Shown piece after piece: positions 37,189-59,651 of a DNA stretch of 64,000 nucleotides. The notes beneath the pieces were generated by a model. It searched no databases, had not been told where the DNA came from, and was given only the letters and a program-made list of their open reading frames with translations. Position 1 is the stretch's first letter. The number at the start of each line of letters is the position of its first letter. The stretch spans positions 1 to 64,000 of the IMG/VR virus record IMGVR_UViG_3300035698_014711, one strand, 5' to 3'. Source of the DNA: a virus. The translations under genes and the position numbers were made by a program.

Positions 37189-37280
37189 TGGTAGAAGTGC
37201 CAGGAGTTGAACCTGGTCGAGAACGGTAATCTGCCGCTGAAAGACTTATAAGATCTCCCTGTGTACCAACACCCACTTCC
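37189..37280 (-). tRNA. tRNA-Ile(TAT), atypical long V-arm
   Basis: GGAGAT-CT-TAT-AA-GTCTTT, short D-arm, V-arm GCGG..CCGT, ACCA. Confidence 0.75.
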
Positions 37281-37286
37281 GTTATT

Positions 37287-37370
37287 TGGTATAAGCGTGA
37301 AGGTATTGAACCTTGGAATACCGCTTTACTAGCTCGCAAATATTCCAGCAGACCACACTGCCATACGCCC
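37287..37370 (-). pseudogene. tRNA-like RNA with aberrant anticodon arm
   Basis: D-arm GCAG/CTGC, GGAATA..TATTCC arm, T-arm AAGG-TTCAATA-CCTT, ACCA. Confidence 0.55.
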
Positions 37371-37377
37371 TCAGTTA

Positions 37378-37647
37378 TTACATTTTATGTGATCTCTCAC
37401 ATTGTTCTGTAATTGCAGCATCAGACAAATCGAGATTAGGACGTGTCAGACCCTCATAGCAAATCAGGTCCTGTTTAAACCCAAAGTCATTTTCTGAGTT
37501 AACATACATTTGGATGAACCGTCCAGCACCATTAGGATAGCTCAATAGAAACCTTGCAGAAAGTATACCTAAGGCAATCTCCTGTGAGATAAACTTACCG
37601 GTGAAGTGTCCTCGAAGACAGTTCCCTAGGGTATATGACTTTTCCAT
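37378..37647 (-). CDS. hypothetical protein
   Basis: ORF in operon. Confidence 0.55.
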   Translation of the reverse strand: MEKSYTLGNCLRGHFTGKFISQEIALGILSARFLLSYPNGAGRFIQMYVNSENDFGFKQDLICYEGLTRPNLDLSDAAITEQCERSHKM

Positions 37648-37648
37648 A

Positions 37649-37855
37649 TCAAGTAGTCTCTACTGTCTCCATGACAGCCTGCAAAAGTTTGTCATAATCA
37701 CCTGACATTGCTTTAGTCTCAAACTCTGCAATATCATCTGCAGAACAACCACCGCGGCGCATTGCTTTCGCGGTGCGTCCGATGACAGAGAAAGCATTAC
37801 CGTCTTCGCCTACAAGACACACGATAACATTTGGAAATTTAACAGTCATGATCAT
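37649..37855 (-). CDS. conserved small phage protein
   Basis: LVGEDGNAF..IG....AM......SGDYD.LL motif; start below promoter. Confidence 0.75.
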   Translation of the reverse strand: MIMTVKFPNVIVCLVGEDGNAFSVIGRTAKAMRRGGCSADDIAEFETKAMSGDYDKLLQAVMETVETT

Positions 37856-37880
37856 ATCCTCATTGTGTTTTGTTAAGACT

Positions 37881-37910
37881 AAACTAACATACAACAGGGC
37901 CAATGTAAAC
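37881..37910 (-). promoter_or_regulatory. early promoter
   Basis: GTTTACA...TATGTTAGTTT. Confidence 0.6.
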
Positions 37911-37912
37911 CA

Positions 37913-38572
37913 TTATTTTGATTTTTCTTTACGGAAGCTTTTCACATAGTCAAAGCCTGCTTTTTGGATCTTATCTTTATCAGCCAGAGGTTTGATGTCA
38001 GGATTATTTGCAATGATACCCGAGACATATTGAAAGATCTCTTGGTGACAGGAGAATGCATCTAGGATAGAAGGAAGCCCTAAGGAGACAAGCCCATCGC
38101 AGTTGATAGTATGGATCCATTTACCTTTCTCACGTTTAGCAAAAGAGACTGAGGTCACAATCCTATTGTCAATCAAAAACTTCTGGTAGGTTTCTCTATT
38201 AATTCCAAGAAATTCATCGATAGCAGGAATGATTTGCTTTCTCTTGTAGCGTGAGAGAATCTTTGTTAGCTTCTTATCACGAGTATAATGAAAGCCATGG
38301 TGTGTTTCAACAAAGGGATAGCACTTAGTAGCTACTGTCACATACCCAAACCGGATATGAAAGGTATGACTACCGCACCAGAGACCTTGGTCTTTTTTGT
38401 CAAAGGTGTATGAAAGATTGGGGACATAACCGGGCCTACCAAAGCCGACACTCGGTAGAGCAAATGGGAGCTTAGCATTATCTACTTCAGTATTTGTTCT
38501 TTTAAACACATAAGCTTTATCAATACCATAGCCACATCCATCATAGTAATCGTGGCCTCGAATAATAAGCAT
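37913..38572 (-). CDS. conserved hypothetical phage protein
   Basis: DYYD N-terminus; KIQKAGFD..SFRK C-terminus. Confidence 0.75.
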   Translation of the reverse strand: MLIIRGHDYYDGCGYGIDKAYVFKRTNTEVDNAKLPFALPSVGFGRPGYVPNLSYTFDKKDQGLWCGSHTFHIRFGYVTVATKCYPFVETHHGFHYTRDKKLTKILSRYKRKQIIPAIDEFLGINRETYQKFLIDNRIVTSVSFAKREKGKWIHTINCDGLVSLGLPSILDAFSCHQEIFQYVSGIIANNPDIKPLADKDKIQKAGFDYVKSFRKEKSK

Positions 38573-38584
38573 ATCACTTCTCCA

Positions 38585-38770
38585 TTATAAAGAGCATATA
38601 CTGGCAAACATCTCATATTCTTCTATTATCAATTCTATAGTTTTGTGTGTATCTCTTGATTGTCTGTAAGCTCTATGTAAATGGACCCATTCAACAGGAA
38701 AATTAGATTCATAGAGTGCCCAATTCAAAAGATCATTGGGAAGATTTTCTCTTATAAGCAATTCATCCAT
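38585..38770 (-). CDS. hypothetical protein
   Basis: Short ORF. Confidence 0.5.
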   Translation of the reverse strand: MDELLIRENLPNDLLNWALYESNFPVEWVHLHRAYRQSRDTHKTIELIIEEYEMFASICSL

Positions 38771-38784
38771 AATACACCTGTAAT

Positions 38785-38856
38785 TGGAGCGGACAGAGGG
38801 AATCTAACCCTCTCCTTAAGTTTGGAAAACTATTTGGCTAACATAGCCCTGCCCGC
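38785..38856 (-). tRNA. tRNA-Gly(TCC), reduced D-loop
   Basis: GCGGGCA/TGTCCGC, U73, D-arm GGCTA-TGT-TAGCC, T-loop TTAGATT. Confidence 0.8.
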
Positions 38857-38859
38857 ATA

Positions 38860-38912
38860 ACCGTGGAGTGTTGAGTTTTTATGCAATAAAATTAAGGAAC
38901 ACTCTTTACGGT
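38860..38912 (-). ncRNA. GTTCCTTA hairpin motif, copy 4
   Basis: ACCGT-AAA-GAGTGTTCCTTA..AACACTC-C-ACGGT. Confidence 0.7.
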
Positions 38913-38930
38913 AGAATAGTATTTATAAGA

Positions 38931-39158
38931 TTAACATCGCATTTTTGGATCAGAATGAAAAGGACTCATTCCAGTTTTACCTGCATGAGCTTCATTAAGC
39001 TTTTCTTGTTGATCAGCTGGATAGCTTGGATCAATTTCATGAAGAAAAACCATATTCAAGTGTCTCTTGATTAGATCCACTTGCTGAGAGTTAATATTAA
39101 CAGGCTCGGCTACTTCAAAGAAGCCCTGTAGCCAATAGCAAAATTCTGTAGATTTCAT
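38931..39158 (-). CDS. conserved small phage protein (FCYWLQGFFE)
   Basis: True start ATG 39158 with AAGGA RBS. Confidence 0.75.
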   Translation of the reverse strand: MKSTEFCYWLQGFFEVAEPVNINSQQVDLIKRHLNMVFLHEIDPSYPADQQEKLNEAHAGKTGMSPFHSDPKMRC

Positions 39159-39174
39159 GTCAGTATCCTTAAAT

Positions 39175-39363
39175 GGCGAGTTGTAATTTGGTGGCACGCA
39201 AGGGCCTTGCTTGATGTAAGGAACAACTTGTGCCGATGTGAATATGCCGGAGTGTAAGGTTTCTAAAATGAATGAATAAGGAACACTCTTTGGCAATATG
39301 TTAATGATGAGCTGTTAAAAATCGGAGGTTGGTCCGACCACGAGTAAGGAACAGCTTTTATCA
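39175..39363 (-). repeat. three tandem GTTCCTTA hairpin motifs (39305-39363, 39245-39295, 39175-39234)
   Basis: Invariant taaggaac (plus strand) with covarying stems and unrelated loops. Confidence 0.8.
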
Positions 39364-39369
39364 AATTTC

Positions 39370-41115
39370 TTAAAGAGACAACAAAGCCTCCAATTTATCA
39401 TAGCTGAATGATGAATAAGTCAGATCGTAATCATACTCAACACCAGGTACAGCTACTTTATCATAGCCTACGCCAATCAGGCCAAGAACTTCTTGAAGAG
39501 TAAAGACAGAGTTAAGACCTTTTTCAATCAGAGGGTTCTTTCCGTTTGATGAAACATGCCTATTTCCCGTCCGTCCTGTAAACACAGTAAAGGTTGTGCC
39601 CTTGACAAAGCCAAGGATAACTTCCTTAGACTGCATAGTGAATTCTTCCTGAATGATTGGGTTCTGAATCCACTCCCCTTTGGTCTTTTGACCTACAATC
39701 AATGAAGCCTTACAGCCAATTTCACCAGAGTAAATATTAACATTAAGACCATATTCAGAACCAGAAGAGGAGGTCATGAATTCCATAGCATCAGGGGTAG
39801 GTGTAACAACATCACCAGAATAGATAATCTGTCCGTCAGTATATCCACCAGTGCCGCCCCAGCCTATACGATTTCCATCTTTATCAATAGAAGATAAGTC
39901 AAGATCTCGAGCTCCACCGTCTTTATGCCAATAGATACCAGAAGAGATAGATTCTGCAGCAACGTGGATCTTTGTGCCAAAAGGTAGATTACCCAGAGTC
40001 TGCTTCTGAGAGATTGGAAGACCATAGTCAACATTAGTATCCAGAAGGATTTTCTTATCTTTCAGGTATTCTAGATCAACTTTAATAGAAGAAATAATAG
40101 TATTCTGAAGCTGACCTAATACTTTCAGATCATAGACTTTAACATCTGCAGTCTTTACAAAGAGCTTGCCATTCCGAATATTGAAAACATCTACATCTAG
40201 CTGCTTGCATTTATACTCAACCAGGTTAAGAAATTTGAACTTATCTCGCAGAGAAGCTTTAGATAATAGATCAAGGGGATCTGTAATCTTACCTGCAATA
40301 GCATCAGCAATGAAGGTCTTTGTCCATGACTGCTTGAGCGGAATATGAACTGTTTTGCTCAACCTAGAGATATAGTTAATCTGAGTTTTATTGCTCTTAT
40401 GCTTGACAGACATAATTACTGCTTTGTGTCGGTTAAAGACTTGAGCAAGAGCAAGAGCGTTACGGCTATAAAAGCTTGAAGGAATAAGAGCGGCTGACAT
40501 TTTGCAAGCCTGGAGAACTTCTTTTGATTTAATCAGAAGAGTATCACCTGTTGCTCGATAGATAATATAGCGGACTGCATCATCACCACAATCAAAAGTG
40601 TCATTGTTAGCATCAAAGAGCAATACTCTAAGCTCGTTATTCTCAACAAGATTGACATTGAACTGAATGAGATACCTATCAATGATAGCTTTCAGACCAA
40701 GGACATCCTTGACCGGAGCATTGCTATACATGAGCTTCCGAACTTTATCACCAAGTTCTTCTTCAGTAATGCCGATAACAAACTTTAGAGTAAAAGTAGG
40801 CTCTTGAGTCTCATTTATGATAGTAAAAGAACCACCAAGACCGTCAAGACCCATGCCATAAACTTCGAGATAATGGATGAACTGTGTGGTCAGAAGGTAA
40901 GGAAGTGAAGCCTTTTGTCGTTCTTCCACTGTAAAAAGAGTACGAACTGGGAGCCCACGATCATTATGCTTGAAAAACAATTGTTGCTCAGGAGATGGGT
41001 TAAAGTTTAAAACATAACCATGCGCAATCATAGTAGTAACAAATGCATCTCTTGAAACCTGATCAGCATCAATTACAGTAGCATTAAATAGGTCTAGAAC
41101 TTCTTTCATAATCAT
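39370..41115 (-). CDS. 581-aa protein, helical N-terminus plus TerD-like C-terminal domain
   Basis: GIYW..RDLDLS..IGW..YSGDV..AMEF..VNIYSG resembles TerD-like domains. Confidence 0.6.
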   Translation of the reverse strand: MIMKEVLDLFNATVIDADQVSRDAFVTTMIAHGYVLNFNPSPEQQLFFKHNDRGLPVRTLFTVEERQKASLPYLLTTQFIHYLEVYGMGLDGLGGSFTIINETQEPTFTLKFVIGITEEELGDKVRKLMYSNAPVKDVLGLKAIIDRYLIQFNVNLVENNELRVLLFDANNDTFDCGDDAVRYIIYRATGDTLLIKSKEVLQACKMSAALIPSSFYSRNALALAQVFNRHKAVIMSVKHKSNKTQINYISRLSKTVHIPLKQSWTKTFIADAIAGKITDPLDLLSKASLRDKFKFLNLVEYKCKQLDVDVFNIRNGKLFVKTADVKVYDLKVLGQLQNTIISSIKVDLEYLKDKKILLDTNVDYGLPISQKQTLGNLPFGTKIHVAAESISSGIYWHKDGGARDLDLSSIDKDGNRIGWGGTGGYTDGQIIYSGDVVTPTPDAMEFMTSSSGSEYGLNVNIYSGEIGCKASLIVGQKTKGEWIQNPIIQEEFTMQSKEVILGFVKGTTFTVFTGRTGNRHVSSNGKNPLIEKGLNSVFTLQEVLGLIGVGYDKVAVPGVEYDYDLTYSSFSYDKLEALLSL

Positions 41116-41128
41116 TCCTCTTTCAAAT

Positions 41129-41202
41129 TGGATGTGCGAGCTGGGATCGAACCAGCATTAACGGGGTCAAAGGCCGCTTTCCTGCCATTAGAAGATCGCA
41201 CA
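41129..41202 (-). tRNA. tRNA-Gln(TTG)
   Basis: Cloverleaf, CCA. Confidence 0.9.
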
Positions 41203-41206
41203 ATAA

Positions 41207-41341
41207 TCAATACTTAGTTTTCAGATCAATCTTATCCAGACGTCTCTGAGCTTTCTTTGTTTTTCCGTGAGCTCCACTCTTCCGAAAATGGGCATGGGCT
41301 GCAAACGGATTTCTGTTCTTTGGGCTTGGGCTCTTTTTCAT
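41207..41341 (-). CDS. small basic protein (RNPF..RKSGAHGK.KKA.RR)
   Basis: 44-aa ORF with GAGG RBS below an early promoter. Confidence 0.65.
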   Translation of the reverse strand: MKKSPSPKNRNPFAAHAHFRKSGAHGKTKKAQRRLDKIDLKTKY

Positions 41342-41362
41342 AATCATTTCCTCTGAATATTA

Positions 41363-41392
41363 ACTATAACATAAAGAGGGCATGATGTAAAC
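41363..41392 (-). promoter_or_regulatory. early promoter
   Basis: GTTTACA...TATGTTATAGT. Confidence 0.8.
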
Positions 41393-41587
41393 CTATCTTT
41401 TTGTTTCTCGTGCCTTACATGCTTCATAAATAATCTGATTTCTGTCAGCGTCAGGCAATTTGCTACTTGTTACAAAACAAGAGACTCCCATGAAACCTTT
41501 GATAGTAATTGGAGTTATCTCACGCATCAAGTTATCGAGACTTGTACGGAGTAAGAGCTTCTCAACATCAAATGATTTAGCTGTCAT
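41393..41587 (-). CDS. hypothetical protein
   Basis: Short ORF. Confidence 0.55.
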   Translation of the reverse strand: MTAKSFDVEKLLLRTSLDNLMREITPITIKGFMGVSCFVTSSKLPDADRNQIIYEACKARETKR

Positions 41588-41606
41588 GTTCTATCCATTG
41601 TTAAAT

Positions 41607-41683
41607 TGGTACCCAAGGTGAGAATTGAACTCACAATATTCAATCTTGTAAGAATCGATGGTCCACCAGGACGCGGCTCGGGC
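41607..41683 (-). tRNA. tRNA-Val(TAC)
   Basis: CGATT-CT-TAC-AA-GATTG, ACCA. Confidence 0.8.
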
Positions 41684-41692
41684 ATATAGTAT

Positions 41693-41776
41693 TGGTGCTG
41701 GCCATAGGATTCGAACCTATGACGTTGTTATAACGGATTACAAAACCGTTCCTTTCGGCCTCTCAGGCAGACCAGC
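41693..41776 (-). tRNA. tRNA-Thr(TGT), extended variable region
   Basis: Loop TT-TGT-AA, about 12-nt V region, ACCA. Confidence 0.8.
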
Positions 41777-41780
41777 ATTA

Positions 41781-42059
41781 TTATTCAGGCAGTACCACGC
41801 AGGACAAACCTACAGGACCGGCGTCACCAAAGGCCATCACACAGAAAACATTGTCTGCAGTGGCAGCAGGGAATTCATAGACACGAACATCCCTGCCAAG
41901 TGCCTCAACTCGATAGCCTGTGCTTTCCTGTGTAGGAAGATCACCAACATCAGTTGAGAACCAACCCGCTCCTGCGGCACCAGACATTGAACTAACAGTT
42001 ATTAGAACAACACCAGCGGCAATAGCTAACAAACCTGATGGCTTAACAAAATTCAACAT
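41781..42059 (-). CDS. hypothetical membrane/secreted protein
   Basis: Hydrophobic N-terminus, GGAG RBS. Confidence 0.7.
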   Translation of the reverse strand: MLNFVKPSGLLAIAAGVVLITVSSMSGAAGAGWFSTDVGDLPTQESTGYRVEALGRDVRVYEFPAATADNVFCVMAFGDAGPVGLSCVVLPE

Positions 42060-42084
42060 AGATTCACTCCGTTTAATTTAGATA

Positions 42085-42171
42085 TGGAGGACAGGGTGGG
42101 ATTCGAACCCACGATGGATGTTACTCAACGAATTAAAAGCCCGCTCCTTCGGCCGCTCAGGTCACCTGTCC
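42085..42171 (-). tRNA. tRNA-Lys(TTT), long variable region
   Basis: GCGGG-CT-TTT-AA-TTCGT, 15-nt V region, U73, CCA. Confidence 0.8.
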
Positions 42172-42614
42172 ATATGATGTTGGCAATGTTCCGCAGAACT
42201 TCTTAGCTACTCTCCGCTCGTAGCACCATTAGTCTAGTTAATTTCTTTTTCTTTTTCTTGTAGCATTGCTTTTAAAATAGCAATCAGGAAAGCCTGGCCT
42301 GCACTTTCAGATTTACCTTCGGCATAAGTAGTGCCGGGTCCGCCGGAGAAAGCATTGGTGAGCAGATCTAGGTTTGCTCACCTTATAGTTTAGAAAGTAT
42401 ATTTTACTTCAAGACCTGCCTGTGTGTTGTCTGAAGCTGTATCAAAGGACCGTCGGAGGTAGGAATGACTGTCACTTTATTTATGACCGCCACATCAAGT
42501 CCGAGTTCAACATACCCGCCTGCTCTTGCAAACTGATTGCTTGCATTGAAGCTATAACCTGCTTCAGAGAAGGCAGTTACTTCACCAGAGAAGGCATAAG
42601 CATGGTTAGGCAAT

Positions 42615-42686
42615 TGGTAGTGTCACCGGGTATCGAACCCAGCCTATTCAGATATGAACCAAACGTCTGAACCTATCAGTGACACC
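42615..42686 (-). tRNA. tRNA-CAT (Met or Ile2), short D-arm
   Basis: Loop TT-CAT-AT, ACCA. Confidence 0.7.
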
Positions 42687-42695
42687 ATATTAACT

Positions 42696-42766
42696 TGGAA
42701 CCCCCGGGGAGAATCGAACTCCCCGTCATCGGCTTCGAAAGCCTAGGCCGTCCCAGCGGCGGAGGT
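42696..42766 (-). tRNA. tRNA-Arg(TCG), atypical
   Basis: GGC-TT-TCG-AA-GCC, CCA. Confidence 0.65.
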
Positions 42767-42772
42767 ATAAAT

Positions 42773-42854
42773 TGGCACAGATCTGAGGAATCGAACCCCT
42801 TGTCAGATGGTTTGGAAGCATCCGTCTACCCAGTAGACATTAGACTAGACCTAT
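42773..42854 (-). tRNA. tRNA-Trp(CCA), atypical 8/4 fold
   Basis: Acceptor ATAGGTCT/AGATCTGT, 4-bp T-stem, loop TT-CCA-AA, GCCA. Confidence 0.6.
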
Positions 42855-42948
42855 ATTGTCTATAATATTTGTAGTTTTGTAGATGGTATAGAACATGGTT
42901 TGTACTCATAGTTTTATTGTCACTACTATTTATACAAACCATGCTCTC
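42840..42948 (-). pseudogene. GIY-YIG (seg-like) homing endonuclease relic with regulatory hairpin
   Basis: MFYTIYKTTNIIDNIGLV* (42896-42840); 15-bp stem covering start; TATAAATA at 42927. Confidence 0.75.
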
Positions 42949-42952
42949 TAAG

Positions 42953-43024
42953 TGGACCGCCGGGGAATCGAACCCCGTGACAGCAATCTTGCAAGGATCG
43001 CCCGCTACCCCATAGACGCAGCCC
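42953..43024 (-). tRNA. tRNA-Ala(TGC), no encoded CCA
   Basis: G3:U70, CT-TGC-AA. Confidence 0.85.
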
Positions 43025-43032
43025 ATATTCTT

Positions 43033-43109
43033 TGGTACCCAAGGAGGGACTCGAACCCTCAAGACCTTCCGTTTGGGGAAGTATGCTATTCCTCTTACGT
43101 TGCCTGGGC
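43033..43109 (-). tRNA. atypical tRNA, possibly Leu(CAA), 6-nt anticodon loop
   Basis: CTTCC-CCAAAC-GGAAG; paralog of 44460-44537. Confidence 0.5.
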
Positions 43110-43254
43110 ATATTATTGCTACCTACTCCATAGCTTTCCGATACTCTCTCCTTACGAGTATGACCTCGGAACACGGTGCTCGCGCAGACCTAAGAAGTTA
43201 CCTTCTTCTCATATTTAAAGACCCTCAGGCTGAAACAGGGTCGTAGAAAACTTC

Positions 43255-43329
43255 TGGTGTTGTGCCGGGGAATCGAACCACCGTTGGACCGACCTATACG
43301 GCCGCGCATTAACATTATGCTAGCACAAC
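43255..43329 (-). pseudogene. degenerate tRNA (collapsed anticodon loop GTATA)
   Basis: Perfect acceptor GTTGTGC/GCACAAC, D-arm, GTTCGATT, ACCA. Confidence 0.6.
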
Positions 43330-43333
43330 ATAT

Positions 43334-43423
43334 TGGCGGATGGAGAGGGAGTCGAACCCTCACGGCGCTTAAAGCCCTAACTGCTTTCAAAACAGCGGCC
43401 ACCCCCAATTGGCTTGCCCATCC
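43334..43423 (-). tRNA. tRNA-Ser(TGA)
   Basis: Long V-arm, G73, CCA. Confidence 0.9.
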
Positions 43424-43434
43424 GTATCTTATAA

Positions 43435-43836
43435 TCAATCGAAGTATGTTGGATCATCATGAGGATTACGCTTTTTTGGAGCTCTAGTTGTCTTCTTCTT
43501 TTTCCTCAGTTCATCTGATATTTCATAGTCTATACCAATACCATCATATTCGTCTTCTTCAGCAAAGTTATATGAAATTGCAATGACACCTCTAATACTA
43601 GGAGTCTCAAAAGATTCGTAATCGCCGTTTTTCTTATATGTCCACTTGGAATCACTTTTAAGAGTGGCAATTAATTTCTTAAGCTTCTTACGGTCGGCTT
43701 CATATACATCCGTGAAATTCTTGTCTGCTTTTTCAGTTGTCCCGCCAGTTATTTTCACGGCCATTTTAATAACAGTAGCTAAATCTTCTGTATTAGCTTC
43801 ATTAAGAGAATGCATCAATTCTTTAAAGGTTTTCAT
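43435..43836 (-). CDS. hypothetical late protein (MKTFKE type)
   Basis: TATAAATA at 43863 and AGGA RBS upstream. Confidence 0.7.
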   Translation of the reverse strand: MKTFKELMHSLNEANTEDLATVIKMAVKITGGTTEKADKNFTDVYEADRKKLKKLIATLKSDSKWTYKKNGDYESFETPSIRGVIAISYNFAEEDEYDGIGIDYEISDELRKKKKTTRAPKKRNPHDDPTYFD

Positions 43837-43890
43837 ACGATATCCTATTCTATGATTTAAAGTATTTATACATTCATACATTCAAAGAAT

Positions 43891-43971
43891 TGGTACTAGG
43901 TGGTAGGTGGTAGAATTGAACTACGCATCAACATCCTTCACAGGGATGAGACCTCACCAGAGGAACCTAGC
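43891..43971 (-). tRNA. tRNA-His(GTG), A73, with 7-nt duplication near the 3' end
   Basis: CATCC-CT-GTG-AA-GGATG; CTACCAC repeated before CTAGTACCA. Confidence 0.7.
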
Positions 43972-44123
43972 ATGATAAACTTGTGGGTCTTATACATTCG
44001 GTTAACCCTTCAGCTGATTGAGTTTCAACACCAGCGAGTAAAGCGCGTTGCGAACATCACGCGGCATGGTAGAAATTGGACCGATACAATGTCCTAAGCG
44101 TCTTTCGATAATCTGTCGGGCAG

Positions 44124-44381
44124 TCATTCGCAGGCCCCCATAAGCATTTCATCTGATGGGCCATTAATGTAATTTTGTGTTTCCAGTAAATCACCGGCAG
44201 TACCAAAGTAAAGCATTAATGAATTGTCATGGTATTCATCAAATGCTGGGCCACCTACGAGGTTAGGGCCACTTTCAGCATTACCATTGTCATGATAATC
44301 TTCATTATAGGCAGTGTGCGTGAAGCCTGCTTCAATCAAGAAAGCGTGGGACGTGCTAAACGGTGTTCTATTATCAGACAT
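44124..44381 (-). CDS. hypothetical early protein
   Basis: Below early promoter, AAGGA RBS. Confidence 0.65.
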   Translation of the reverse strand: MSDNRTPFSTSHAFLIEAGFTHTAYNEDYHDNGNAESGPNLVGGPAFDEYHDNSLMLYFGTAGDLLETQNYINGPSDEMLMGACE

Positions 44382-44412
44382 TTGGTTAATCCTTTGGTTT
44401 GGTTATAAGTTA

Positions 44413-44442
44413 ACCATAACATAACCAGAGACATATGTAAAC
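44413..44442 (-). promoter_or_regulatory. early promoter
   Basis: GTTTACA...TATGTTATGGT. Confidence 0.7.
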
Positions 44443-44459
44443 AACTAAATGATATATTT

Positions 44460-44537
44460 TGGTACCCAAGGAGGGACTCGAACCCTCAGACCTCACCTTC
44501 TAAGGGTGATATGCTATTCCACTTACATCGCAGGGGC
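44460..44537 (-). tRNA. tRNA-Leu(TAG), short variable arm, mismatched acceptor
   Basis: TCACC-CT-TAG-AA-GGTGA, ACCA. Confidence 0.7.
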
Positions 44538-44547
44538 ATGATAAACT

Positions 44548-44623
44548 TGGTACCTGAGGAGGGAATTGAACTCTCTCATAAACACTAATCAGGTGCTCGT
44601 CTTTCCATTAGACAGTCTCAGGC
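44548..44623 (-). tRNA. tRNA-Ile(GAT)
   Basis: AGCAC-CT-GAT-TA-GTGTT, ACCA. Confidence 0.85.
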
Positions 44624-44627
44624 ATAT

Positions 44628-44702
44628 TGGTAGCGGGGTCAGGAATTTAACCTGAAGGAAGACGTGGTAATGAGCCAGTCTTGAGAAACATCTCTCCCCG
44701 CA
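44628..44702 (-). tRNA. initiator-like tRNA-Met(CAT), degenerate
   Basis: GCGGGG/CCCCGC with 1:72 mismatch, CT-CAT-TA, ACCA. Confidence 0.6.
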
Positions 44703-44730
44703 CAAACTTTATAAGGTTCTTCCAGGGTGC

Positions 44731-44844
44731 CAGCCCTATGTAAATCATACCATTGATTATATTAGTAGTTTTGTAAATTGTGTAGTGCAAGAGAAGTACC
44801 TATAGTTTTACCATATAGTACTATCTATACTTCTCTTGCACTCT
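44731..44844 (-). pseudogene. second GIY-YIG homing endonuclease relic with regulatory hairpin
   Basis: TTG 44790: HYTIYKTTNIINGMIYIGL; perfect 15-bp IR 44784-44798/44828-44842. Confidence 0.8.
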
Positions 44845-44846
44845 AT

Positions 44847-44919
44847 TAAAGCATACGGGATTCGAACCCGTGTTCACCGGGTGAAAACCGGCGCGTCCTT
44901 TCCAATAGACGAATGCTTC
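44847..44919 (-). tRNA. tRNA-Glu(TTC), no encoded CCA
   Basis: GCCGG-TT-TTC-AC-CCGGT. Confidence 0.88.
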
Positions 44920-44934
44920 ATAATGATGAAATTT

Positions 44935-44964
44935 ATTATAACATAATCTAATGCCTATGTAAAC
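44935..44964 (-). promoter_or_regulatory. early promoter
   Basis: GTTTACA...TATGTTATAAT. Confidence 0.8.
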
Positions 44965-44972
44965 AAAAGATT

Positions 44973-45067
44973 TGGTAGGCGCGGTGGGCATCGAACCCAC
45001 GGTGTGATCATTAATCTGTAGCAGATTTTAAGTCTGCCGCGTTTCAGCCAAACTTCGCCACGCGCCC
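44973..45067 (-). tRNA. tRNA-Leu(TAA)
   Basis: Long V-arm, ACCA. Confidence 0.92.
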
Positions 45068-45075
45068 GTTGTAAT

Positions 45076-45149
45076 TGGTGCTCCCGGAAGGAATCGAACC
45101 TTCGTGCGTCGGCTTAGAAGACCTTGCTTGGTAAACCACCAGCGGGAGC
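45076..45149 (-). tRNA. tRNA-Arg(TCT)
   Basis: CT-TCT-AA, ACCA. Confidence 0.8.
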
Positions 45150-45156
45150 AATTAGT

Positions 45157-45232
45157 TGGTGCTGCCCCACAGAATTGAACTGTGGTTTTCGGCTCTTCAG
45201 ACCGACGTGAGCACCAGCCTCACCAGAGCAGC
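45157..45232 (-). tRNA. tRNA-Phe(GAA)
   Basis: Cloverleaf, ACCA. Confidence 0.9.
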
Positions 45233-45238
45233 ATATTT

Positions 45239-45314
45239 TGGTCACTGTGGTAGGTCTCGAACCTACGATCTCCTAGTTCCAAACCAGGCGACTTACCTAC
45301 TAGCCTACACAGAG
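45239..45314 (-). tRNA. tRNA-Pro(TGG)
   Basis: Cloverleaf, ACCA. Confidence 0.9.
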
Positions 45315-52166: not shown

Positions 52167-53209
52167 CAGTCACCACCTTTTAGGAGAAATTTATTTGAGA
52201 TTACCTTGAAGCTTGTGTCAGTGAAGTTATTCTTCCACACAAGGCCTTCCCTGTATTTATGGGTCAGAGAGGCCCCATCTGCATATTCAAGTGCATTTTC
52301 TACGGAAGTTGGGTAGTAACCTTTACTATCTAGAATTGGAACTGTAACAAGTCCATTCTGGGAGATAAATGTCCAACGGGCATCAGGAAGTAGATAAGCT
52401 TGGTTCTGAATATCAAAGATATCAAAGATAAAGAACTCACATTCAGATAGTTTCTCACGGTTACCTTGAACTCCAGGGCCCATAATTTCACCTTGGAAAG
52501 CAAACCCTAGTTCTACTTTATCGCCATACTTTAGAGCTTGTTTGACATAGACATTTTCTTTGGTTGATTCTTCAATACGGATTTCCATGTTTCGGCCCGC
52601 AACATGCAGACCTTCATCATCACGCCAGATTGTGCAAGAAGTTCCATCGAGCTTAAGAGAGATTTCCCAGCTATCATGTGTATAATCTGAGAGTTTTTCA
52701 AAACAGTTCTGAATTCGTTCCTGATCTGTTTTAGGAATAAAGCTTGGAAATGTTCCCTTTGCGAGTCCTTGCATTTCAGCAGGGATAGCCTTTTCCCATT
52801 TCTGAATATTAAGAGCTTCGGTAACATCATCACCAGACTCGACAAAAACCATCATTCCACTTCCAGCCCCGTCTGTGTGATGGAAACCGACAACAAATCT
52901 TCGGTCGCGGACTCTCTCAACGATGTTCAGAATGAGACCTTGGCTGACCTGACCTCGAAGCTTAATTGTCCGAAGACGTTCACCAGCAACCCCATTATAT
53001 TCTCGAGGTGTATGCTCTCTTGAAAGAAAGGGAGCCAAATCATGAGGTACCCAACTATCAATCTCAAGATAAACTACTAGATCACCAATTGTAAATTCGC
53101 CCTTTTTGACAACTACTTTCCAGCCGTCTACTGTAGCCACTTCAATTGCATCTGCGCCTTCAATTGGATCAAGACCAATGATAGTTCTGACTGTTGCTAG
53201 TTGTCTCAT
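52166..53209 (-). CDS. RNA ligase, DRB0094 family
   Basis: PIEGADAIE..VDGW, KLRGQVSQGL, FIPKTDQERIQN, KLDGTS, EGLV, SFKVISN. Confidence 0.92.
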   Translation of the reverse strand: MRQLATVRTIIGLDPIEGADAIEVATVDGWKVVVKKGEFTIGDLVVYLEIDSWVPHDLAPFLSREHTPREYNGVAGERLRTIKLRGQVSQGLILNIVERVRDRRFVVGFHHTDGAGSGMMVFVESGDDVTEALNIQKWEKAIPAEMQGLAKGTFPSFIPKTDQERIQNCFEKLSDYTHDSWEISLKLDGTSCTIWRDDEGLHVAGRNMEIRIEESTKENVYVKQALKYGDKVELGFAFQGEIMGPGVQGNREKLSECEFFIFDIFDIQNQAYLLPDARWTFISQNGLVTVPILDSKGYYPTSVENALEYADGASLTHKYREGLVWKNNFTDTSFKVISNKFLLKGGD

Positions 53210-53610
53210 AGTTCATCCGCTGCTTTTGTCAAAGCTTCTACTTTTTCCTTAAGTCTGTCCTTCATGCAAGAGGTTTGGTATGCTGAATTTACATATTCTG
53301 CTCTCGCTTTCCAAACATCAAGAATAAGACTATGCATGGGTGTTTTCTCAGGCTCTACTTCCTCAGGCTCTGCATTCATGGCAGACTCAATGTATGTATC
53401 AATATTAGCAAACATGACTGTATTCCATTTACGGTCTTCATCACCTACAAACGATACTGTTGAAGATGAGCATCCAACCTCAATAGAACTTACTGTGTAT
53501 TGCAGGCCGGGTTTAAATACCTTCTTCGCAGCTGCTAGTTGGAAATCATACCCATTTCTACCTAGAAAATAGACACTCTCTCCAGGCTTTGTATCTAGTC
53601 GCATTGTCAT
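53206..53610 (-). CDS. hypothetical protein
   Basis: Coupled ORF. Confidence 0.65.
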   Translation of the reverse strand: MTMRLDTKPGESVYFLGRNGYDFQLAAAKKVFKPGLQYTVSSIEVGCSSSTVSFVGDEDRKWNTVMFANIDTYIESAMNAEPEEVEPEKTPMHSLILDVWKARAEYVNSAYQTSCMKDRLKEKVEALTKAADEL

Positions 53611-53998
53611 TATTTTCCATTCTCTTTCTAAGCTCTGATGAGCTGAAGTTATGATACCTACTGTTGTAAAAGATCTTTGTGATATGCATACCGGTAAATG
53701 ATTTGTTCTTATATTCCATTCCGATAAAGCGGATATCAGGTCTAATCAGTCTCAACATATCAGTTAAATCTTGTTCAGTCTCATATGGGACAATCTCATC
53801 AATATATGATACTGCCTTGAGCTGAATATAGCGTTCAACTAATGATTGAATAGGCTTATTCTTTTCCGGTCTATCAATTGTTGGATCAGTTTGTAAACCG
53901 ACAATTAGTCGGTCACAGTTCTCTTTTGATTCTCTAAGCATAGCAATATGGCCAGCGTGGAGTAAATCAAAGGAGCTGAAGGTAATTCCTGTCTTCAT
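53558..53998 (-). CDS. cytidylyltransferase (TagD-like)
   Basis: FDLLHAGH, LIVGLQTDP, KNKP, SSSELR. Confidence 0.9.
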   Translation of the reverse strand: MKTGITFSSFDLLHAGHIAMLRESKENCDRLIVGLQTDPTIDRPEKNKPIQSLVERYIQLKAVSYIDEIVPYETEQDLTDMLRLIRPDIRFIGMEYKNKSFTGMHITKIFYNSRYHNFSSSELRKRMENNDNATRYKAWRECLFSR

Positions 53999-54883: not shown

Positions 54884-54906
54884 ACTTTTTCCTAACCATT
54901 TTTATA

Positions 54907-55190
54907 ACCATAACACAGTGACTATGACTTGTAAACCATTATTTTAAATAAATCTAAACGTAGTGTGTATTTCTTTTTCTTCTTTTGATAACCACCAGTA
55001 ATCACAAGAACACATTTCTCGTGTGTTACCGTTATTGTCTCTAACAGCAACTTCATTACACCCGTCAGGCATAGATTCTGTTGATAACCATTCCCATGGA
55101 GCATAATATTCAGGCTTAGTCATTTAATAATCTAATTGATATTTTATAGTTATAACATAATGACTATGACTTGTAAACTATTATTTTTAA
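54907..55190 (-). repeat. duplicated early-promoter cassette (about 54907-54949 and 55148-55190) flanking a small ORF
   Basis: tgactatgacttgtaaac(c/t)att present twice. Confidence 0.8.
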
Positions 55191-55234
55191 ATTCTTTCTA
55201 CTTTACCTTCCAACCAACAACTATCATTGTTTTC

Positions 55235-55580
55235 TTAGAAGCACACACTTTGCCATCCGAAGAGACAAGTGTGTGCTTGAGTTTTGTTTACTCGTCGGCA
55301 TTCACACTCTGATATGAGCAACTCTTGCGAGGAAGGGCGGTCAGCCGAATACCTTTTAAGCTCAGTTTGCATACTGACGGCAATTTTCCCAAGCCTATCA
55401 GACGACAACAGGGAAAATTTGATGGTTGATGTGTTCATTGCCATCATCGTGACTATAATATTTAGACAGCATTTAGACTTGGCTGTATCATGGTGTAATT
55501 TGTGCCCTAACTGAGCCCAAGGACTATGTCCTTTCTTCAGGTTTGGCTACTCACTTGAGGCTATGCCTCTATGTTAGCAG
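55235..55580 (-). ncRNA. about 340-nt multi-hairpin structured RNA candidate
   Basis: About 10 consecutive hairpins including GCAA tetraloop; no credible ORF. Confidence 0.65.
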
Positions 55581-55584
55581 AATA

Positions 55585-56181
55585 TCAATGTTTGATATAT
55601 TCTACATTAGCTCCTGTCTTAATCTTTGGAGCTCCGTCTATGTGGTGAAACACAAACTGTGTCTCTGAAAACTCTTTAAACAGTCCTTCCCAAATAGGTC
55701 TCCAGTTACCTGTTAACCTTGCAGTTGCTTGCTGATCTCTTTGAGAATGCAGAATAAGATCAGTAGTACTCGTTAAATCAAAGCTAAAAAGAGAATCGAA
55801 TCCATAAAGATGAATTTCTTCTGCTTTGAGTTTATTTGCTACATAATGAGTAGCAACATGTCCACAATTGAAGTCTGTATGATTTGCAGCATAAGGTGGT
55901 AGGTCTGTATAGAAGGCCTTCACTTTTGGAGCAATCTTCATATAAAACTGAGGATGTTTTTCCAGCCAGATCTTTGGTCTCATACCTAAGATCCATTCTC
56001 CTGGAATAATAAGACTTCCTTCTGTGATAGCTTTCATCATCTTGAAATCAACAATTGTTGATGCGTAAGCATTATGAATATCGAAGGGAGCAAGATTGCA
56101 GGTCATTCTAAGACCTATAGTTCTGTTATCAAAAAGGGCACATGATTTGCCGTTGCCGATAATATGTGCTACTTTAGCCAT
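55585..56181 (-). CDS. glycosyltransferase-like protein (IIGNG motif)
   Basis: IIGNGKS, IHLYGFD. Confidence 0.55.
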   Translation of the reverse strand: MAKVAHIIGNGKSCALFDNRTIGLRMTCNLAPFDIHNAYASTIVDFKMMKAITEGSLIIPGEWILGMRPKIWLEKHPQFYMKIAPKVKAFYTDLPPYAANHTDFNCGHVATHYVANKLKAEEIHLYGFDSLFSFDLTSTTDLILHSQRDQQATARLTGNWRPIWEGLFKEFSETQFVFHHIDGAPKIKTGANVEYIKH

Positions 56182-56815
56182 TCATCATTTCTCTTATTTT
56201 GATTTTGCCTTTGGGACCAGTCCAATGCACAATTTTAGCATTCCTGTCAGTTAATCCATCCAAAAAATCCAATCTTAGAAAATTGTATTCGGATGAAACC
56301 TCGTTAATATATATAAGCTTCTGCAGAGGATCTGATAACATTTCTTGTAAAACCTCTTGATCTCCAACTTTATTTTGGCTAATGCATCTTTGGGACCAAA
56401 GCTTGAGAATGGGAGGGTTATGAATAACTCCAACAACCCCTGAGTTATACCAGAGCTCACCTCGGCGGCGACTCCAAGGTCTATCTTGGCACATACTCAA
56501 TTTGCTCTCAAGAAGAAGATCAAACATCTCGTTAAGATTACCCCGAACTTCACAATCAACATCAAGCCAGATCTTCTTATCAGCCTTAATGTCTAATATG
56601 GCTTTAGGCTTATAGAACCAAGCTTTAATGTTTGTATTAATCTTATCTGTAATCTTAATACCATATGCTGCAGCATGATCAATACCTTTTTGACTTAATC
56701 CAAAATCAACAACTTTAATATTAGCAGTAGGATTATGTTTAAAAAAGTTTGAAAGAAACCAAGGAAGCATCCATTCCTGCTGAGCATCACAACCTGTTAT
56801 GAATGTATTAAGCAT
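56174..56815 (-). CDS. GT-A glycosyltransferase (GT8-like)
   Basis: WFYKP, WLDVD, YNSGV, GDQE, IVHWTG. Confidence 0.8.
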   Translation of the reverse strand: MLNTFITGCDAQQEWMLPWFLSNFFKHNPTANIKVVDFGLSQKGIDHAAAYGIKITDKINTNIKAWFYKPKAILDIKADKKIWLDVDCEVRGNLNEMFDLLLESKLSMCQDRPWSRRRGELWYNSGVVGVIHNPPILKLWSQRCISQNKVGDQEVLQEMLSDPLQKLIYINEVSSEYNFLRLDFLDGLTDRNAKIVHWTGPKGKIKIREMMNG

Positions 56816-57008
56816 TTGTAAGCCTTGTGATCATACCTAAGATACTCTGGCATTCTTTTTTTCTGGTATTAGCATCATGTATGTCTGAAACAGAAGCACC
56901 ATGACCGAGACCGGAAAGTGTATATTTGTATTCTAAAAGTAAATCAAATCTATTAATTCTACTAGTAATGTCAGTTTTTATCTTAAGTAGAGTATCAGTA
57001 TCAGTCAT
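56808..57008 (-). CDS. hypothetical protein
   Basis: Coupled ORF. Confidence 0.55.
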   Translation of the reverse strand: MTDTDTLLKIKTDITSRINRFDLLLEYKYTLSGLGHGASVSDIHDANTRKKECQSILGMITRLTNA

Positions 57009-57658
57009 AGTATTTTAAACTCCGCATTATAGTTATGCTTAGCTAAACAGCCTCGTTTATGCTGGATTGAGCTAAAGTTATCTTTTACCTTTACAATCCA
57101 AGGATAGTACTCTTGAACATTAAAATCATTCTTATTAATGAACAGATCAGTTGGAACACCGCCGTCAGCTTGAGCTTTATCAAGAAGTTTTCTTGCACCC
57201 CGGGGTGTAATCATATAAGCATGAGCTCCAGGTAGATAAGTCTTCGAAGTAAGGGTATTAACACCTAAAAGAGAAGGAGTATTAAACTTACCGTAAGAAG
57301 GAGCTCCAATAGAACATATGTCTTTGAAGGGTATTCTATCATAATCTAAAGAACCAGTGAATATGGCATCATGTTCTAGAATTAGGATCTTTTTGTTTGA
57401 TTGGTATGCATACCACCAAAGAGAAACGTGAGAAGCAAATGCAGCAATGCATGGTTCTGTTCTCGAATAGATACTATCTGCTTCAAACTTACTTACTGAA
57501 ATACCATTTACAGCCAAATACTTTCTTGGGTTTTCAGCCGGCGTAAAACCCGGCCAGATTTCAGCAACAATCTTTCCAATGTCTTCAGCACTTTTTAGAC
57601 ATTTCTGCGCTGCAGTCTGAGATTCTTCTTTATCAATAGCAATTATATAAGCTTTCAT
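57005..57658 (-). CDS. glycosyltransferase family 25-like
   Basis: SH..LW, ILILEHDA, GAHAYMITP.GA.KL. Confidence 0.82.
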   Translation of the reverse strand: MKAYIIAIDKEESQTAAQKCLKSAEDIGKIVAEIWPGFTPAENPRKYLAVNGISVSKFEADSIYSRTEPCIAAFASHVSLWWYAYQSNKKILILEHDAIFTGSLDYDRIPFKDICSIGAPSYGKFNTPSLLGVNTLTSKTYLPGAHAYMITPRGARKLLDKAQADGGVPTDLFINKNDFNVQEYYPWIVKVKDNFSSIQHKRGCLAKHNYNAEFKIL

Positions 57659-58368
57659 GATGACGTTGTAGACCTCGTTCTTTGAACTTTTGTGTAATAA
57701 GTTGTAGTGATACCTAGATCTGAAAACATCTGTTGATTCAATAGAGCATCATTAGGCCAAACTCCATGTTCTTTAACAGCAGCAATAGCACTTTTTGCAA
57801 ATCTAGGTTTAATGATATAAGCAGAGTTACCGGCAAGACCTTGAGGAATCATATACTTATCCACAATAGGCGGCCTGATGAATTTCTTTCCTGAAGTCTT
57901 AGCATTTTTGACATGAGCATCATATATTGAGGCTCGTCTTGTAGCACCAATAGGAGAGTTTAGACCTATACATCCGTATTTAGAATCTAGGATCTCTTCA
58001 ATAGGAGGATTCTTAATAAAGAAGGCATCGTGCTCGAGAATCAAGATAGGCTCTTTACTGTCAACAGATACCTGCCAGAGAAAGTAATGGGAAAGGGCAC
58101 AAGCAATCCGAGCATTTAAGTTAACTGTAGGGTATGCTGAAAGTTTCAATCCAGTAGCAATATCAAGTCTTGATCCACTGCTTGGGTATGTCCATTTAAG
58201 CTTTTCTTGTTTCAGCATTGGTTGTGCTTCATCAGCAGTTACCGCGTTCACTGTCATAACAGGAGCTAATTTGGTATTTGATTTAGCAGAAGCAATACAG
58301 TTCTGTGATGCTGTAATAGATATACTATTGAGTGCCAGAGTTATTACGTAAGCTTTAAGAGATTGCAT
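57655..58368 (-). CDS. glycosyltransferase family 25-like
   Basis: CALSHY.LW, ILILEHDA, AYIIKP..A, PND. Confidence 0.82.
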   Translation of the reverse strand: MQSLKAYVITLALNSISITASQNCIASAKSNTKLAPVMTVNAVTADEAQPMLKQEKLKWTYPSSGSRLDIATGLKLSAYPTVNLNARIACALSHYFLWQVSVDSKEPILILEHDAFFIKNPPIEEILDSKYGCIGLNSPIGATRRASIYDAHVKNAKTSGKKFIRPPIVDKYMIPQGLAGNSAYIIKPRFAKSAIAAVKEHGVWPNDALLNQQMFSDLGITTTYYTKVQRTRSTTSS

Positions 58369-58972
58369 AAATCACACTATCTAATTCGCCAGTCTTATTT
58401 GTATTATCATGAATAGTAATATTTGTGTTCTGAATTGCATCATGGAATAAAGCAAACTCTTGTTTATTATAATCAGATGGCCGAGACTTAATCCATTTAT
58501 TCTGCCATTCTGCAAATCCGAATTTATCAATACGGAATACATCCTCAACAAAATATATCCCGTCCTTCTTAAGCATAGGCTTAAAATTCTCATAGGTCTG
58601 TCTATTTGCTTTAGGAGTGTGCTTTCCGTCATCAATTATGAAATCAAAAGAAGGCCATTTTTCATTCTTCATGACATCAGCCCAACCCTTTCTAGTGCTG
58701 TCACCTTTTATATAAGAGAATCTCTCATTGGTATTCAGATCACCAAGTTCTTCAGGCTGCAGTCTTGAGAAAATATCAATTCCATACATATTAGCATTCG
58801 GCATATAGTCTAGAAATGCTCTTGTTGAAGCTCCATGAAATACTCCAATCTCAAGAATGTTGAGCTTTTTATCTGCAACAGGTGCAAAATATTTACTGTA
58901 GATGGTATGATACTGATGCTTTTTAGCTTTATCACATCCATATTTATTAAACAGATCTTTTAGTTCACTCAT
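58355..58972 (-). CDS. class I SAM-dependent (sugar) O-methyltransferase
   Basis: DK..HQY..IY, ILEIGV..GAS, FDFIIDDG.H, GIYFVED. Confidence 0.85.
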   Translation of the reverse strand: MSELKDLFNKYGCDKAKKHQYHTIYSKYFAPVADKKLNILEIGVFHGASTRAFLDYMPNANMYGIDIFSRLQPEELGDLNTNERFSYIKGDSTRKGWADVMKNEKWPSFDFIIDDGKHTPKANRQTYENFKPMLKKDGIYFVEDVFRIDKFGFAEWQNKWIKSRPSDYNKQEFALFHDAIQNTNITIHDNTNKTGELDSVIYAIS

Positions 58973-59651
58973 TCCAATAGTTCCTCTTAGGTCCGCTATC
59001 AAAATCATAACCCCAGTAATCAATATCTTTCTGATACCAGTCTGCTACAATTTGGGTTGTTTCTGGAGTATATAAATCCATATAACTCCCTTTATTTAGG
59101 GCTGTTACATTTCTTGCTCTAGACATCTGAGGAATGTTAAAATATTTGCATATGTCCTCATTGTAATTTTCAAATCTGATAATCTTAGCCATACATTTTA
59201 GACCATTTTTATCAGAAACGTGATCCCAAGCTGGATACCATCCACGAATAGCTCTATGCCACATGAACTCGTTGGCTCCCCATTTATATCTTTCTTCTAG
59301 GAAGGCTTCAAATGATGAAACATCAGCATAAGAATTGGAAACTTTCTTCTCTACTTCTATTACCTTCTTGGCGAAAAAGTATCGAGAAACAACTCTGTCC
59401 CAAGGATTTCTTACAATTGCAAATGCATCATATTGTGATGTATACTGGGTATTTATATCTCTCCATCTGCTGTGTTCATTTCCGTGGTGATCACCAAGCA
59501 TAGTCATGACTGTATTGAGAGAGTTAGTGTAATCGGGGTTCTTATGTAAATGAGCTCCTGCAATAATTATTTTGTCTCTCAGAAATGGAGAATGCCGAAT
59601 AGTCATGCCGCCATTCTTTGGAATATGAATAAAGATCTTTTTATGCAGCAT
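58965..59651 (-). CDS. sulfotransferase family 2
   Basis: FIHIPKNGG, VRNPWDRVVS.Y, WYQKD. Confidence 0.85.
   Translation of the reverse strand: MLHKKIFIHIPKNGGMTIRHSPFLRDKIIIAGAHLHKNPDYTNSLNTVMTMLGDHHGNEHSRWRDINTQYTSQYDAFAIVRNPWDRVVSRYFFAKKVIEVEKKVSNSYADVSSFEAFLEERYKWGANEFMWHRAIRGWYPAWDHVSDKNGLKCMAKIIRFENYNEDICKYFNIPQMSRARNVTALNKGSYMDLYTPETTQIVADWYQKDIDYWGYDFDSGPKRNYWNE

Follow-up and report, generated by a model that had tools for sequence, protein, structure and literature searches.

Orphan RNAs of large size and intricate structure that are linked to phages and to tRNA genes are represented by GOLLD and ROOL, which reach several hundred nucleotides, occur in bacteria as well as in phages and have no known function. 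The Methylobacterium-1 motif was described by Weinberg et al. in 2010 from Methylobacterium and from marine sequences, and was rated as a likely RNA, not of the cis-regulatory or switch kind (PMC2864571). Its published model comprises 103 nt, the accompanying table gives 36 sequences, and the drawing of the motif carries the labels P1, P2, P3 and pseudoknot (PMC2864571). Among the papers found under this name, as far as titles and abstract openings go, only the 2010 description concerns the RNA. Genes for tRNA and tmRNA are integration sites of islands, as collected in the Islander database (PMC4383910), and islands of a few kb with few genes and an integrase, the PICMIs, were described from marine bacteria in 2024 (PMC10803314); according to the abstract, they belong to Vibrionaceae, lie beside fis and have three core proteins (PMC10803314). 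Judged by its sequence, the copy analysed here is a new, diverged and phage-borne member of the Methylobacterium-1 family (RF01712 in Rfam), and what is new about the family is that it appears to be a larger RNA, carried by islands.

The window, that is, the whole stretch of DNA that was analysed, comprises 64,000 nt (positions 1 to 64,000) of the IMG/VR virus record IMGVR_UViG_3300035698_014711, which has 73.3 kb and a completeness estimate of 37%. Its PHROG matches (baseplate wedge and hub, a gp32-type SSB, a DNA end protector and an RNase H) are those of a T4-like myovirus, and the 60 window ORFs scanned against PHROG include no integrase. An RtcB-type ligase (32683-34119), a second RNA ligase with an OB-fold N-terminal domain (52169-53209) and 15 tRNA matches spread across 26705-45314 (Rfam) are also present, as are NAMPT and NMNAT-Nudix genes of NAD salvage; by these gene predictions, RNA repair and NAD salvage are both well provided for in this phage.

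The genes around the structured RNA lie on the minus strand, and all coordinates of the RNA and of its neighbouring genes refer to this strand. The region homologous to the RNA covers about 355 nt (55229-55584), defined by the RF01712 core together with profile similarity of both flanks, and it runs from directly after the stop codon of a 198-aa gene to slightly beyond a long 3' hairpin; these limits give the extent of homology and not mapped transcript ends. The 198-aa gene (55585-56181) is an ORF with neither a Pfam nor a PHROG family. Directly upstream of the RNA there is a run of sugar-modifying genes (56174-59651), composed of a GT8-like match (weak and sub-threshold), two GT25-family glycosyltransferases, a methyltransferase and a sulfotransferase-like gene; a cytidylyltransferase-like gene lies apart from this run, at 53558-53998. 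Downstream, an ORF of 59 aa (54944-55123) has its own promoter-like 49-nt repeat (55142-55190; TTTACA, 17 nt, TATAAC), which opens the cassette of this gene and has a twin, detected in the repeat search, at 54900-54948. The two copies are 86% alike with an exact core of 17 nt, and each contains a sigma-70-like promoter (TTTACA, 17 nt, TATGGT or TATAAC) before a small gene. The repeat looks like a cassette promoter of a variable region, and the RNA unit extends downstream no further than the copy at 55142-55190. Neither a promoter nor a terminator belonging to the RNA itself was found at the locus, and transcription may thus reach it from the 198-aa gene.

The stretch is present in DNA runs labelled salt lake metagenome (all 17 runs listed being DNA), and four DNA runs from ice metagenomes contain small shares of it only. 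Contigs covering the RNA (55136-55539) show 0 differences from the window and, therefore, no covariation within the phage lineage. A commoner relative strain, with a contig depth of 16-20 in runs X4 and X6 and of about 3 in run X3, versus 3-5 for the strain of the window, shares the 59-aa gene with 18 differences (54905-55124; runs X3, X4 and X6). This relative carries a 14-nt deletion at 54924, within the promoter-like repeat, and turns unlike the window exactly at 55124, a break that is also seen in run X2. The break at this point and the contig data indicate that the RNA is, in the phage, a strain-specific accessory cassette in a variable region.

The sequence-only reading had presented this stretch as a novel phage RNA of about 340 nt made of back-to-back hairpins. 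The ten arm pairs that it listed are all present in the sequence and are here placed on the minus strand. They comprise, from the 5' side, the hairpins GAGGC/GCCUC (55569-55557) and AAGGAC/GUCCUU (55533-55519), both with an AUA loop, the pairs ACAGC/GCUGU (55486-55482 with 55470-55466), UGAUGG/CCAUCA (55446-55441 with 55425-55420) and AAUUUUCCC/GGGAAAAUU (55419-55411 with 55390-55382), the hairpin CAGU/ACUG (55376-55363), the pair AAGG..CGG/CCG..CCUU (55355-55333), the hairpins CUC-GCAA-GAG (55331-55322) and GAGU/ACUC (55293-55279), and a long hairpin with perfect 12-nt arms (55278-55267 with 55250-55239), which was also reported by the repeat finder. The minus strand folds at -102.8 kcal/mol versus -85.45 +/- 5.61 kcal/mol in shuffled sequences (z -3.09; 1 of 100 shuffles as good), and the plus strand reaches z -1.62 (4 of 100 as good), so that the structure exceeds chance and is strand-specific.

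The Rfam search suggested by the sequence-only reading identified the core of this RNA. Among all 4227 families, the window gave 16 matches, which correspond to 15 tRNAs and to RF01712 (Methylobacterium-1 RNA), the latter at 55373-55481 over model positions 1-103, with 47.2 bits versus a gathering score of 40. The E-value of this match is 4e-5 in the window and 3.8e-7 in a 601-nt region around it, where no other Rfam family appears at E up to 1. The earlier statement that tmRNA ends and the cores of RNase P and group I are missing agrees with this result, tmRNA, RNase P RNA and group I or group II introns giving no Rfam match in the window (at the gathering score) or in the region (at E <=1). 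The claim of novelty does not hold for the central 109 nt, which belong to a family described in 2010 (PMC2864571).

The match places helix P1 at 55473-55478 with 55451-55457, P2 at 55441-55446 with 55420-55425, P3 at 55411-55419 with 55382-55390 and the 3' tail of the core at 55373-55381. On an alignment of 56 sequences including the window (A3), the three hairpins follow the order of the model, and the window forms four of six pairs in P1 (a helix with two non-standard pairs in the window), five of five in P2 and nine of nine in P3, mostly built from letters unlike those of the family. It also matches the pattern of unpaired letters of RF01712 (UAAA..AUU in the P1 loop, the CA-GA-G linker and CCGU..AGU in the 3' tail), which are invariant or nearly invariant columns of A3. 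In this core alignment, 95.0% of the cells are paired versus 87.3% in shuffles, double changes occur in 17 of the 29 pairs, and all nine pairs of P3 covary. The window copy is the most diverged family member seen, and an HMM of the motif that uses sequence only misses it (E 1.6). The Rfam match and the alignment show that the window core belongs to the RF01712 family.

A further candidate helix, here called P0, is formed by ACAGC/GCUGU (55482-55486 with 55466-55470), whose arm 5' of the Rfam model pairs into the P1 loop; we propose that P0 and P1 would form an H-type pseudoknot. According to pair counts over the 56 sequences, 90.4% of the P0 cells are paired, and the window keeps five of five pairs. 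Columns 16/34 of this helix are C-G in 54 sequences, G-C in the window and U-A in one metagenome locus (L187), and columns 13/37 are GC in 15, AU in 13, CG in 1, GU in 2 and unpaired in 25. An alternative pseudoknot candidate, between the P3 loop and the 3' tail, is paired in 92.0% of the cells, with one pair unpaired in 13 of the 56 sequences and uncompensated.

Alignments of 53, and then of 31, members show that conservation continues in blocks beyond the Rfam model, for about 100 nt on the upstream side and about 290 nt on the downstream side, and that the 103-nt motif is, as aligned, the core of an RNA of about 385-450 nt in bacteria. The family has a short form and a long form, the latter with two extra hairpins. 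RNAalifold on MAFFT alignments recovered the structure only in part, and the helices were, therefore, set by eye and their pairs counted. In the first part of the 3' domain (43 distinct sequences), three helices are paired in 96.9% of the cells versus 82.4% in shuffles, both sides change in 9 of the 13 pairs, and one of these pairs is AU in 21 sequences, UA in 11, GC in 8 and CG in 3. The second part (48 sequences) contains the long hairpin, with 6 pairs showing double changes, its structure being paired overall in 77.4% of the cells versus 74.7% in shuffles. These counts show that the larger 3' architecture, with helices of the NGGG/CCCN and ACCUA/UAGGU types besides the long hairpin, covaries in bacteria.

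Several other observations were made on these alignments. The 3' part contains two copies of a six-letter motif (A1 columns 37-45 and 106-114), which changes in step between subtypes, being CUCAAG both times in the long form and CGCAGA or a close variant both times in the short form; no pairing partner was found for it. In each subtype, and likewise in the window (55297-55310 versus 55239-55250), the segment 5' of the small hairpin resembles, by eye, the long hairpin's 3' strand, so it could pair with the 5' strand instead, and this alternative pairing is a possible two-state switch. Two metagenome loci carry mosaic RNAs: in L196, a 5' part that follows one subtype as far as +34 is joined to a 3' part of another, and in L199 the 5' part is a different one as far as -18, the two break points falling within the most conserved blocks. 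These mosaics would fit recombination between alleles. Near-identical RNAs also show sharp homology borders, which alone are no proof of recombination joints since flanks may diverge faster.

The flanks of the window core can be compared with this larger RNA part by part. The 5' domain (55486-55584; short-type profile) includes the hairpins at 55557-55569 and 55519-55533 and a first CUCAAG at 55554-55559, the second copy of this motif in the window being at 55276-55281. The first part of the 3' domain (55322-55376) contains the hairpin CAGU/ACUG, the AAGG/CCUU helix (55352-55355 with 55333-55336), which encloses CGG-CUGA-CCG, and the hairpin CUC-GCAA-GAG; the R3 alignment sets AAGG/CCUU and CUC/GAG of the window onto helices that covary in the family. 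The second part (55239-55321), supported by the R1 local match and by the profile test, includes a GUUGCUC block (55316-55322), GAGU/ACUC followed by the second CUCAAG (55276-55293), and the long hairpin (55239-55278).

The profile test is our own global profile alignment, compared with dinucleotide shuffles and with random window segments. For the 3' part, it covered 55229-55372, leaving out the columns shared with Rfam, and gave a score of 9.7 with the short-type profile versus -43.2 +/- 7.6 in shuffles (z 7.0, 0 of 1500) and -41.4 +/- 8.3 in random window segments (z 6.2, 0 of 1500); the opposite strand gave z -0.3 and the long-form profile z 2.9 (2 of 300). A stretch of 87 nt (55225-55311) gave z 5.67 (0 of 300). 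The 5' part (55486-55584) reached z 4.06 and 3.76 with the short-type profile (0 of 1500 each) and z -0.73 with the long-type profile. Covariance models (CMs) were calibrated for pieces of up to 163 positions, R1 and R2 being built mostly from the long form and R3 from the 3' part of the short form. Over the whole window, R1 and R2 were not significant, their best matches being elsewhere (E 0.5-4.5); in the 601-nt region, R1 found the long hairpin (55241-55276; 7.3 bits, E 0.1) and R2 the expected place (2.0 bits, E 1). R3 gave 55281-55369 as the second of three matches over the whole window (9.8 bits, E 0.45), and within 3 kb the same place was the first of 25 (9.8 bits, E 0.021). Flank HMMs, which use sequence only, had no match in the window. 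Since the CMs are not significant for the flanks, their homology rests on the profile test and on collinearity; on this mixed evidence, we regard the whole of 55229-55584 as a homologue of the short form. The earlier description of a structured phage RNA of about 340 nt was, thus, right in kind, the core being RF01712, and its extent fits the profile test, but the flanks are not significant by CM.

With regard to its distribution, homologs in related phages, proposed earlier as a source of covariation, did not appear: RF01712 was found by Rfam scan in none of 40 phage loci, which are the scanned part of 45 viral loci with relatives of the 198-aa gene, and blastn of the region against the 45 loci gave only two 50-nt matches at chance level. 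A collection of isolated phages had no match to the window region or to a bacterial member. In the viral collection, a DNA pattern returned 65 stretches with one true member (L082, the same as L115). A longer DNA pattern gave at least 119 stretches in metagenomes, with about 60 members among the matches listed (53-55 distinct), one of these loci (L195) being identical to the window copy, and at least 120 stretches in genomes, with ten members among the matches listed. All 20 metagenome loci checked with Rfam were confirmed, scoring 76.7-105.4 bits, and no further family was reported next to the RNA. Of the five genome members that carry a title, four are given as Alphaproteobacteria (Rhodobiaceae, Puniceispirillales, SAR116 and Rhodospirillales) and one as Pseudomonadota only.

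The DNA pattern is narrow and missed most of the copies found in a set of 121 genomes, at least 80% complete, from the order that holds the SAR116 genome, where the RNA is present in 18 genomes, one of them with two copies. Each of five genomes checked has one RNA copy, and separate genes for alpha_tmRNA and for RNase P RNA were found in four of the five each. The RNA is accessory, with a patchy distribution, and not a housekeeping RNA; it lives in SAR116-type and other marine Alphaproteobacteria, in about one genome in seven of the order.

In its bacterial setting the RNA is associated with integrated elements. Pfam searches of 40 loci showed recombinases adjoining the RNA in 12, four more having a recombinase relative by blastp, and restriction and other defence-type genes are also near the RNA in these loci. 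Two 109-aa SnoaL-like proteins, considered as a sign of shared synteny upstream, were not alike. The island context was established from ten loci in nine of the RNA-bearing genomes. A tRNA-Arg gene (anticodon CCG, ACG, UCG or UCU) lies within about 2 kb of the RNA in eight of the ten, and a tyrosine integrase is placed between tRNA and RNA, in the same direction, in six; the integrase is 2.4-2.9 kb downstream in two and absent in the remaining two. In six of the ten loci, the segment is bounded by a direct repeat that copies the final 46-67 nt of the tRNA, giving islands of 4.9, 6.0, 6.7, 6.0, 1.7 and 7.9 kb. The empty site is represented by two related genomes, in which the core flank and the tRNA are the same but the integrase-plus-RNA segment is lacking. 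In three islands, integrase and RNA are 90-95% alike while the other cargo is different. Island cargo has almost no recognisable function, and no satellite-type PHROG match was found among the island ORFs. The RNA is, thus, a conserved non-coding module of tRNA-Arg islands of 1.7-7.9 kb, usually located directly behind the integrase.

The 1.7-kb island (L394:6786-8621, genome G062) contains only the RNA, without an integrase, between tRNA-Arg and a 59-nt repeat of the tRNA 3' end, which makes it a decayed island or else a non-autonomous rider. Beyond the first island of two other loci (L395:4119-4755 and L398:15813-15876), there are more repeats of the tRNA end and a second integrase fragment (DUF6538), an arrangement that suggests tandem islands at the same tRNA-Arg gene. 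The possibility that the RNA is itself a housekeeping gene serving as an integration target, like tmRNA, was considered and rejected, given its presence in 18 of 121 genomes, its position inside the repeats and its absence from empty sites. A search for displaced RNA fragments in three genomes gave only chance 16-18-mers.

None of this setting accompanies the window copy. The nearest tRNA match of the window ends at 45314, about 10 kb off, and a tRNA-Arg/integrase setting was not found; no relative of an island protein was detected in the window at E up to 0.01. Because the window lacks the usual neighbours of the family, the link between phage and islands consists of the RNA alone.

The locus is probably a gene for a predicted folded non-coding RNA, a diverged, full-length and phage-borne member of the RF01712 family that is shared with tRNA-Arg islands. 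Such an RNA would act through its pseudoknotted fold, either as a free RNA or as part of a ribonucleoprotein, and it may serve dealings between the phage and the islands, our best guess being that one partner mimics the RNA of the other. A more specific proposal, which we regard as doubtful, would make the small tRNA-Arg islands satellites of virulent T4-like phages, with the RNA as the joining handle. In that case, the phage could use the RNA for priming or marking DNA, in replication or packaging, or for timing gene expression, and a look-alike in the islands would serve to have them copied or moved by the phage machinery; alternatively, the phage RNA might be a decoy of the island RNA that keeps the islands silent. 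The 1.7-kb element with nothing but the RNA would then be the smallest rider.

The proposal of a working RNA gene has to be weighed against decay, that is, against DNA that the phage acquired from an island or a host and that no longer works, its hairpins being leftovers. Such an origin would suit the most diverged copy seen, its absence from all 40 related phage loci and from the commoner relative at the site, and the failure to find a promoter or a terminator. The nine of nine P3 pairs, five of five P2 pairs and five of five P0 pairs are, however, kept in the window with almost all of them changed on both sides, and pairs maintained by two-sided change reflect selection on the fold and not decay; moreover, the minus strand still folds at z -3.09 and the three domains are retained in order. 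We consider a decaying passenger unlikely.

It is also improbable that the element is of the origin type, a structured primer or origin acting as RNA or as DNA, which the islands would carry so that a helper phage copies them. RNA-primed origins have precedents in ColE1 RNA II and in the origin transcripts of T4, the phage encodes an RNase H, and the 1.7-kb island with only the RNA (L394) suits an element needed in cis. A replication origin was, in addition, the alternative offered by the sequence-only reading, but the usual marks of an origin are missing from the site: iterons and an AT-rich unwinding block are absent and the skew does not change, GC content across the region being 0.40-0.42 with a smooth skew, and the only repeats are the promoter-like 49-mers, which lie outside the RNA. 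There is also no tie between the RNA and replication genes, and the G-U-containing covariation of the relatives points to an RNA folded on one strand. A role as origin or primer is a weaker form of the phage-island idea.

Another reading, quite improbable in our view, is that the stretch is a cis-acting 3' UTR in the message of the 198-aa gene, serving as stabiliser, processing site or terminator. The RNA does start a few bases past the stop codon of this gene, on the same strand and with no promoter of its own found, but relatives of the 198-aa gene go without the RNA in 40 of 40 loci scanned, and relatives of the RNA follow quite different genes, or a tRNA alone. Since the two occur apart, this gene is not the partner of the RNA, and the authors of the 2010 description had scored the motif as not cis-regulatory (PMC2864571).

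The sequence-only reading had found no credible ORF in the stretch, which stands in so far as none has family support or conservation, but mechanical ORFs do overlap it, two on the plus strand (76 and 58 aa) and, the longest, one of 70 aa on the minus strand (55235-55447). That this last ORF encodes the functional product and that the hairpins are incidental can practically be dismissed: the ORF exists and begins with ATG, but its Pfam match is sub-threshold (17 bits versus a cut-off of 21.6) and no family matches above threshold, its start falls inside helix P2 of the RF01712 match, the 31 family members compared have no ORF in common by position, strand or length, and no Shine-Dalgarno-like run precedes the ATG by eye.

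If the stretch is a folded RNA gene shared by phage and islands, as we favour, RF01712, which has been in Rfam since 2010, gains a size, a home and a phage counterpart. An RNA common to a phage and to minimal islands that share no protein with it, in the part of the phage examined, could expose a satellite-helper relationship or bring to light a step of island mobility that depends on RNA. Should the satellite link fail, the extended alignment still improves the family model and would help to find the RNA in the annotation of phages and islands.

In relation to the systems described so far, the RNA reported here shares with GOLLD and ROOL a length of several hundred nucleotides, an intricate fold and an occurrence in both bacteria and phages; it differs from them in that it gives no match to their models, Rfam returning only RF01712 even at E up to 1, and in that it is smaller and has a defined home beside an island integrase. 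As in the islands of the Islander type, the site is a tRNA gene, here tRNA-Arg, which is restored on integration, the displaced 3' fragment forming the far repeat; unlike the target genes of those islands, the RNA is not the target, being located within the islands and missing from empty sites. PICMIs are comparable in size and in having an integrase to the islands studied here, which measure 1.7-7.9 kb and have one element in common with a T4-like phage; they differ in that their abstract mentions no RNA module (PMC10803314). The islands studied here are at tRNA-Arg genes in Alphaproteobacteria and have only the integrase and the RNA as conserved parts. Regarding the Methylobacterium-1 RNA itself, an island context is absent from the table row, the alignment and the drawing of 2010, and the text supplement of that work may say more. 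The window core is like the published motif in its three hairpins and in its conserved unpaired letters; it differs from it in its T4-like phage setting and in being the most divergent copy, and the published 103 nt become, here, the core of an RNA of about 385-450 nt with covarying 3' helices.
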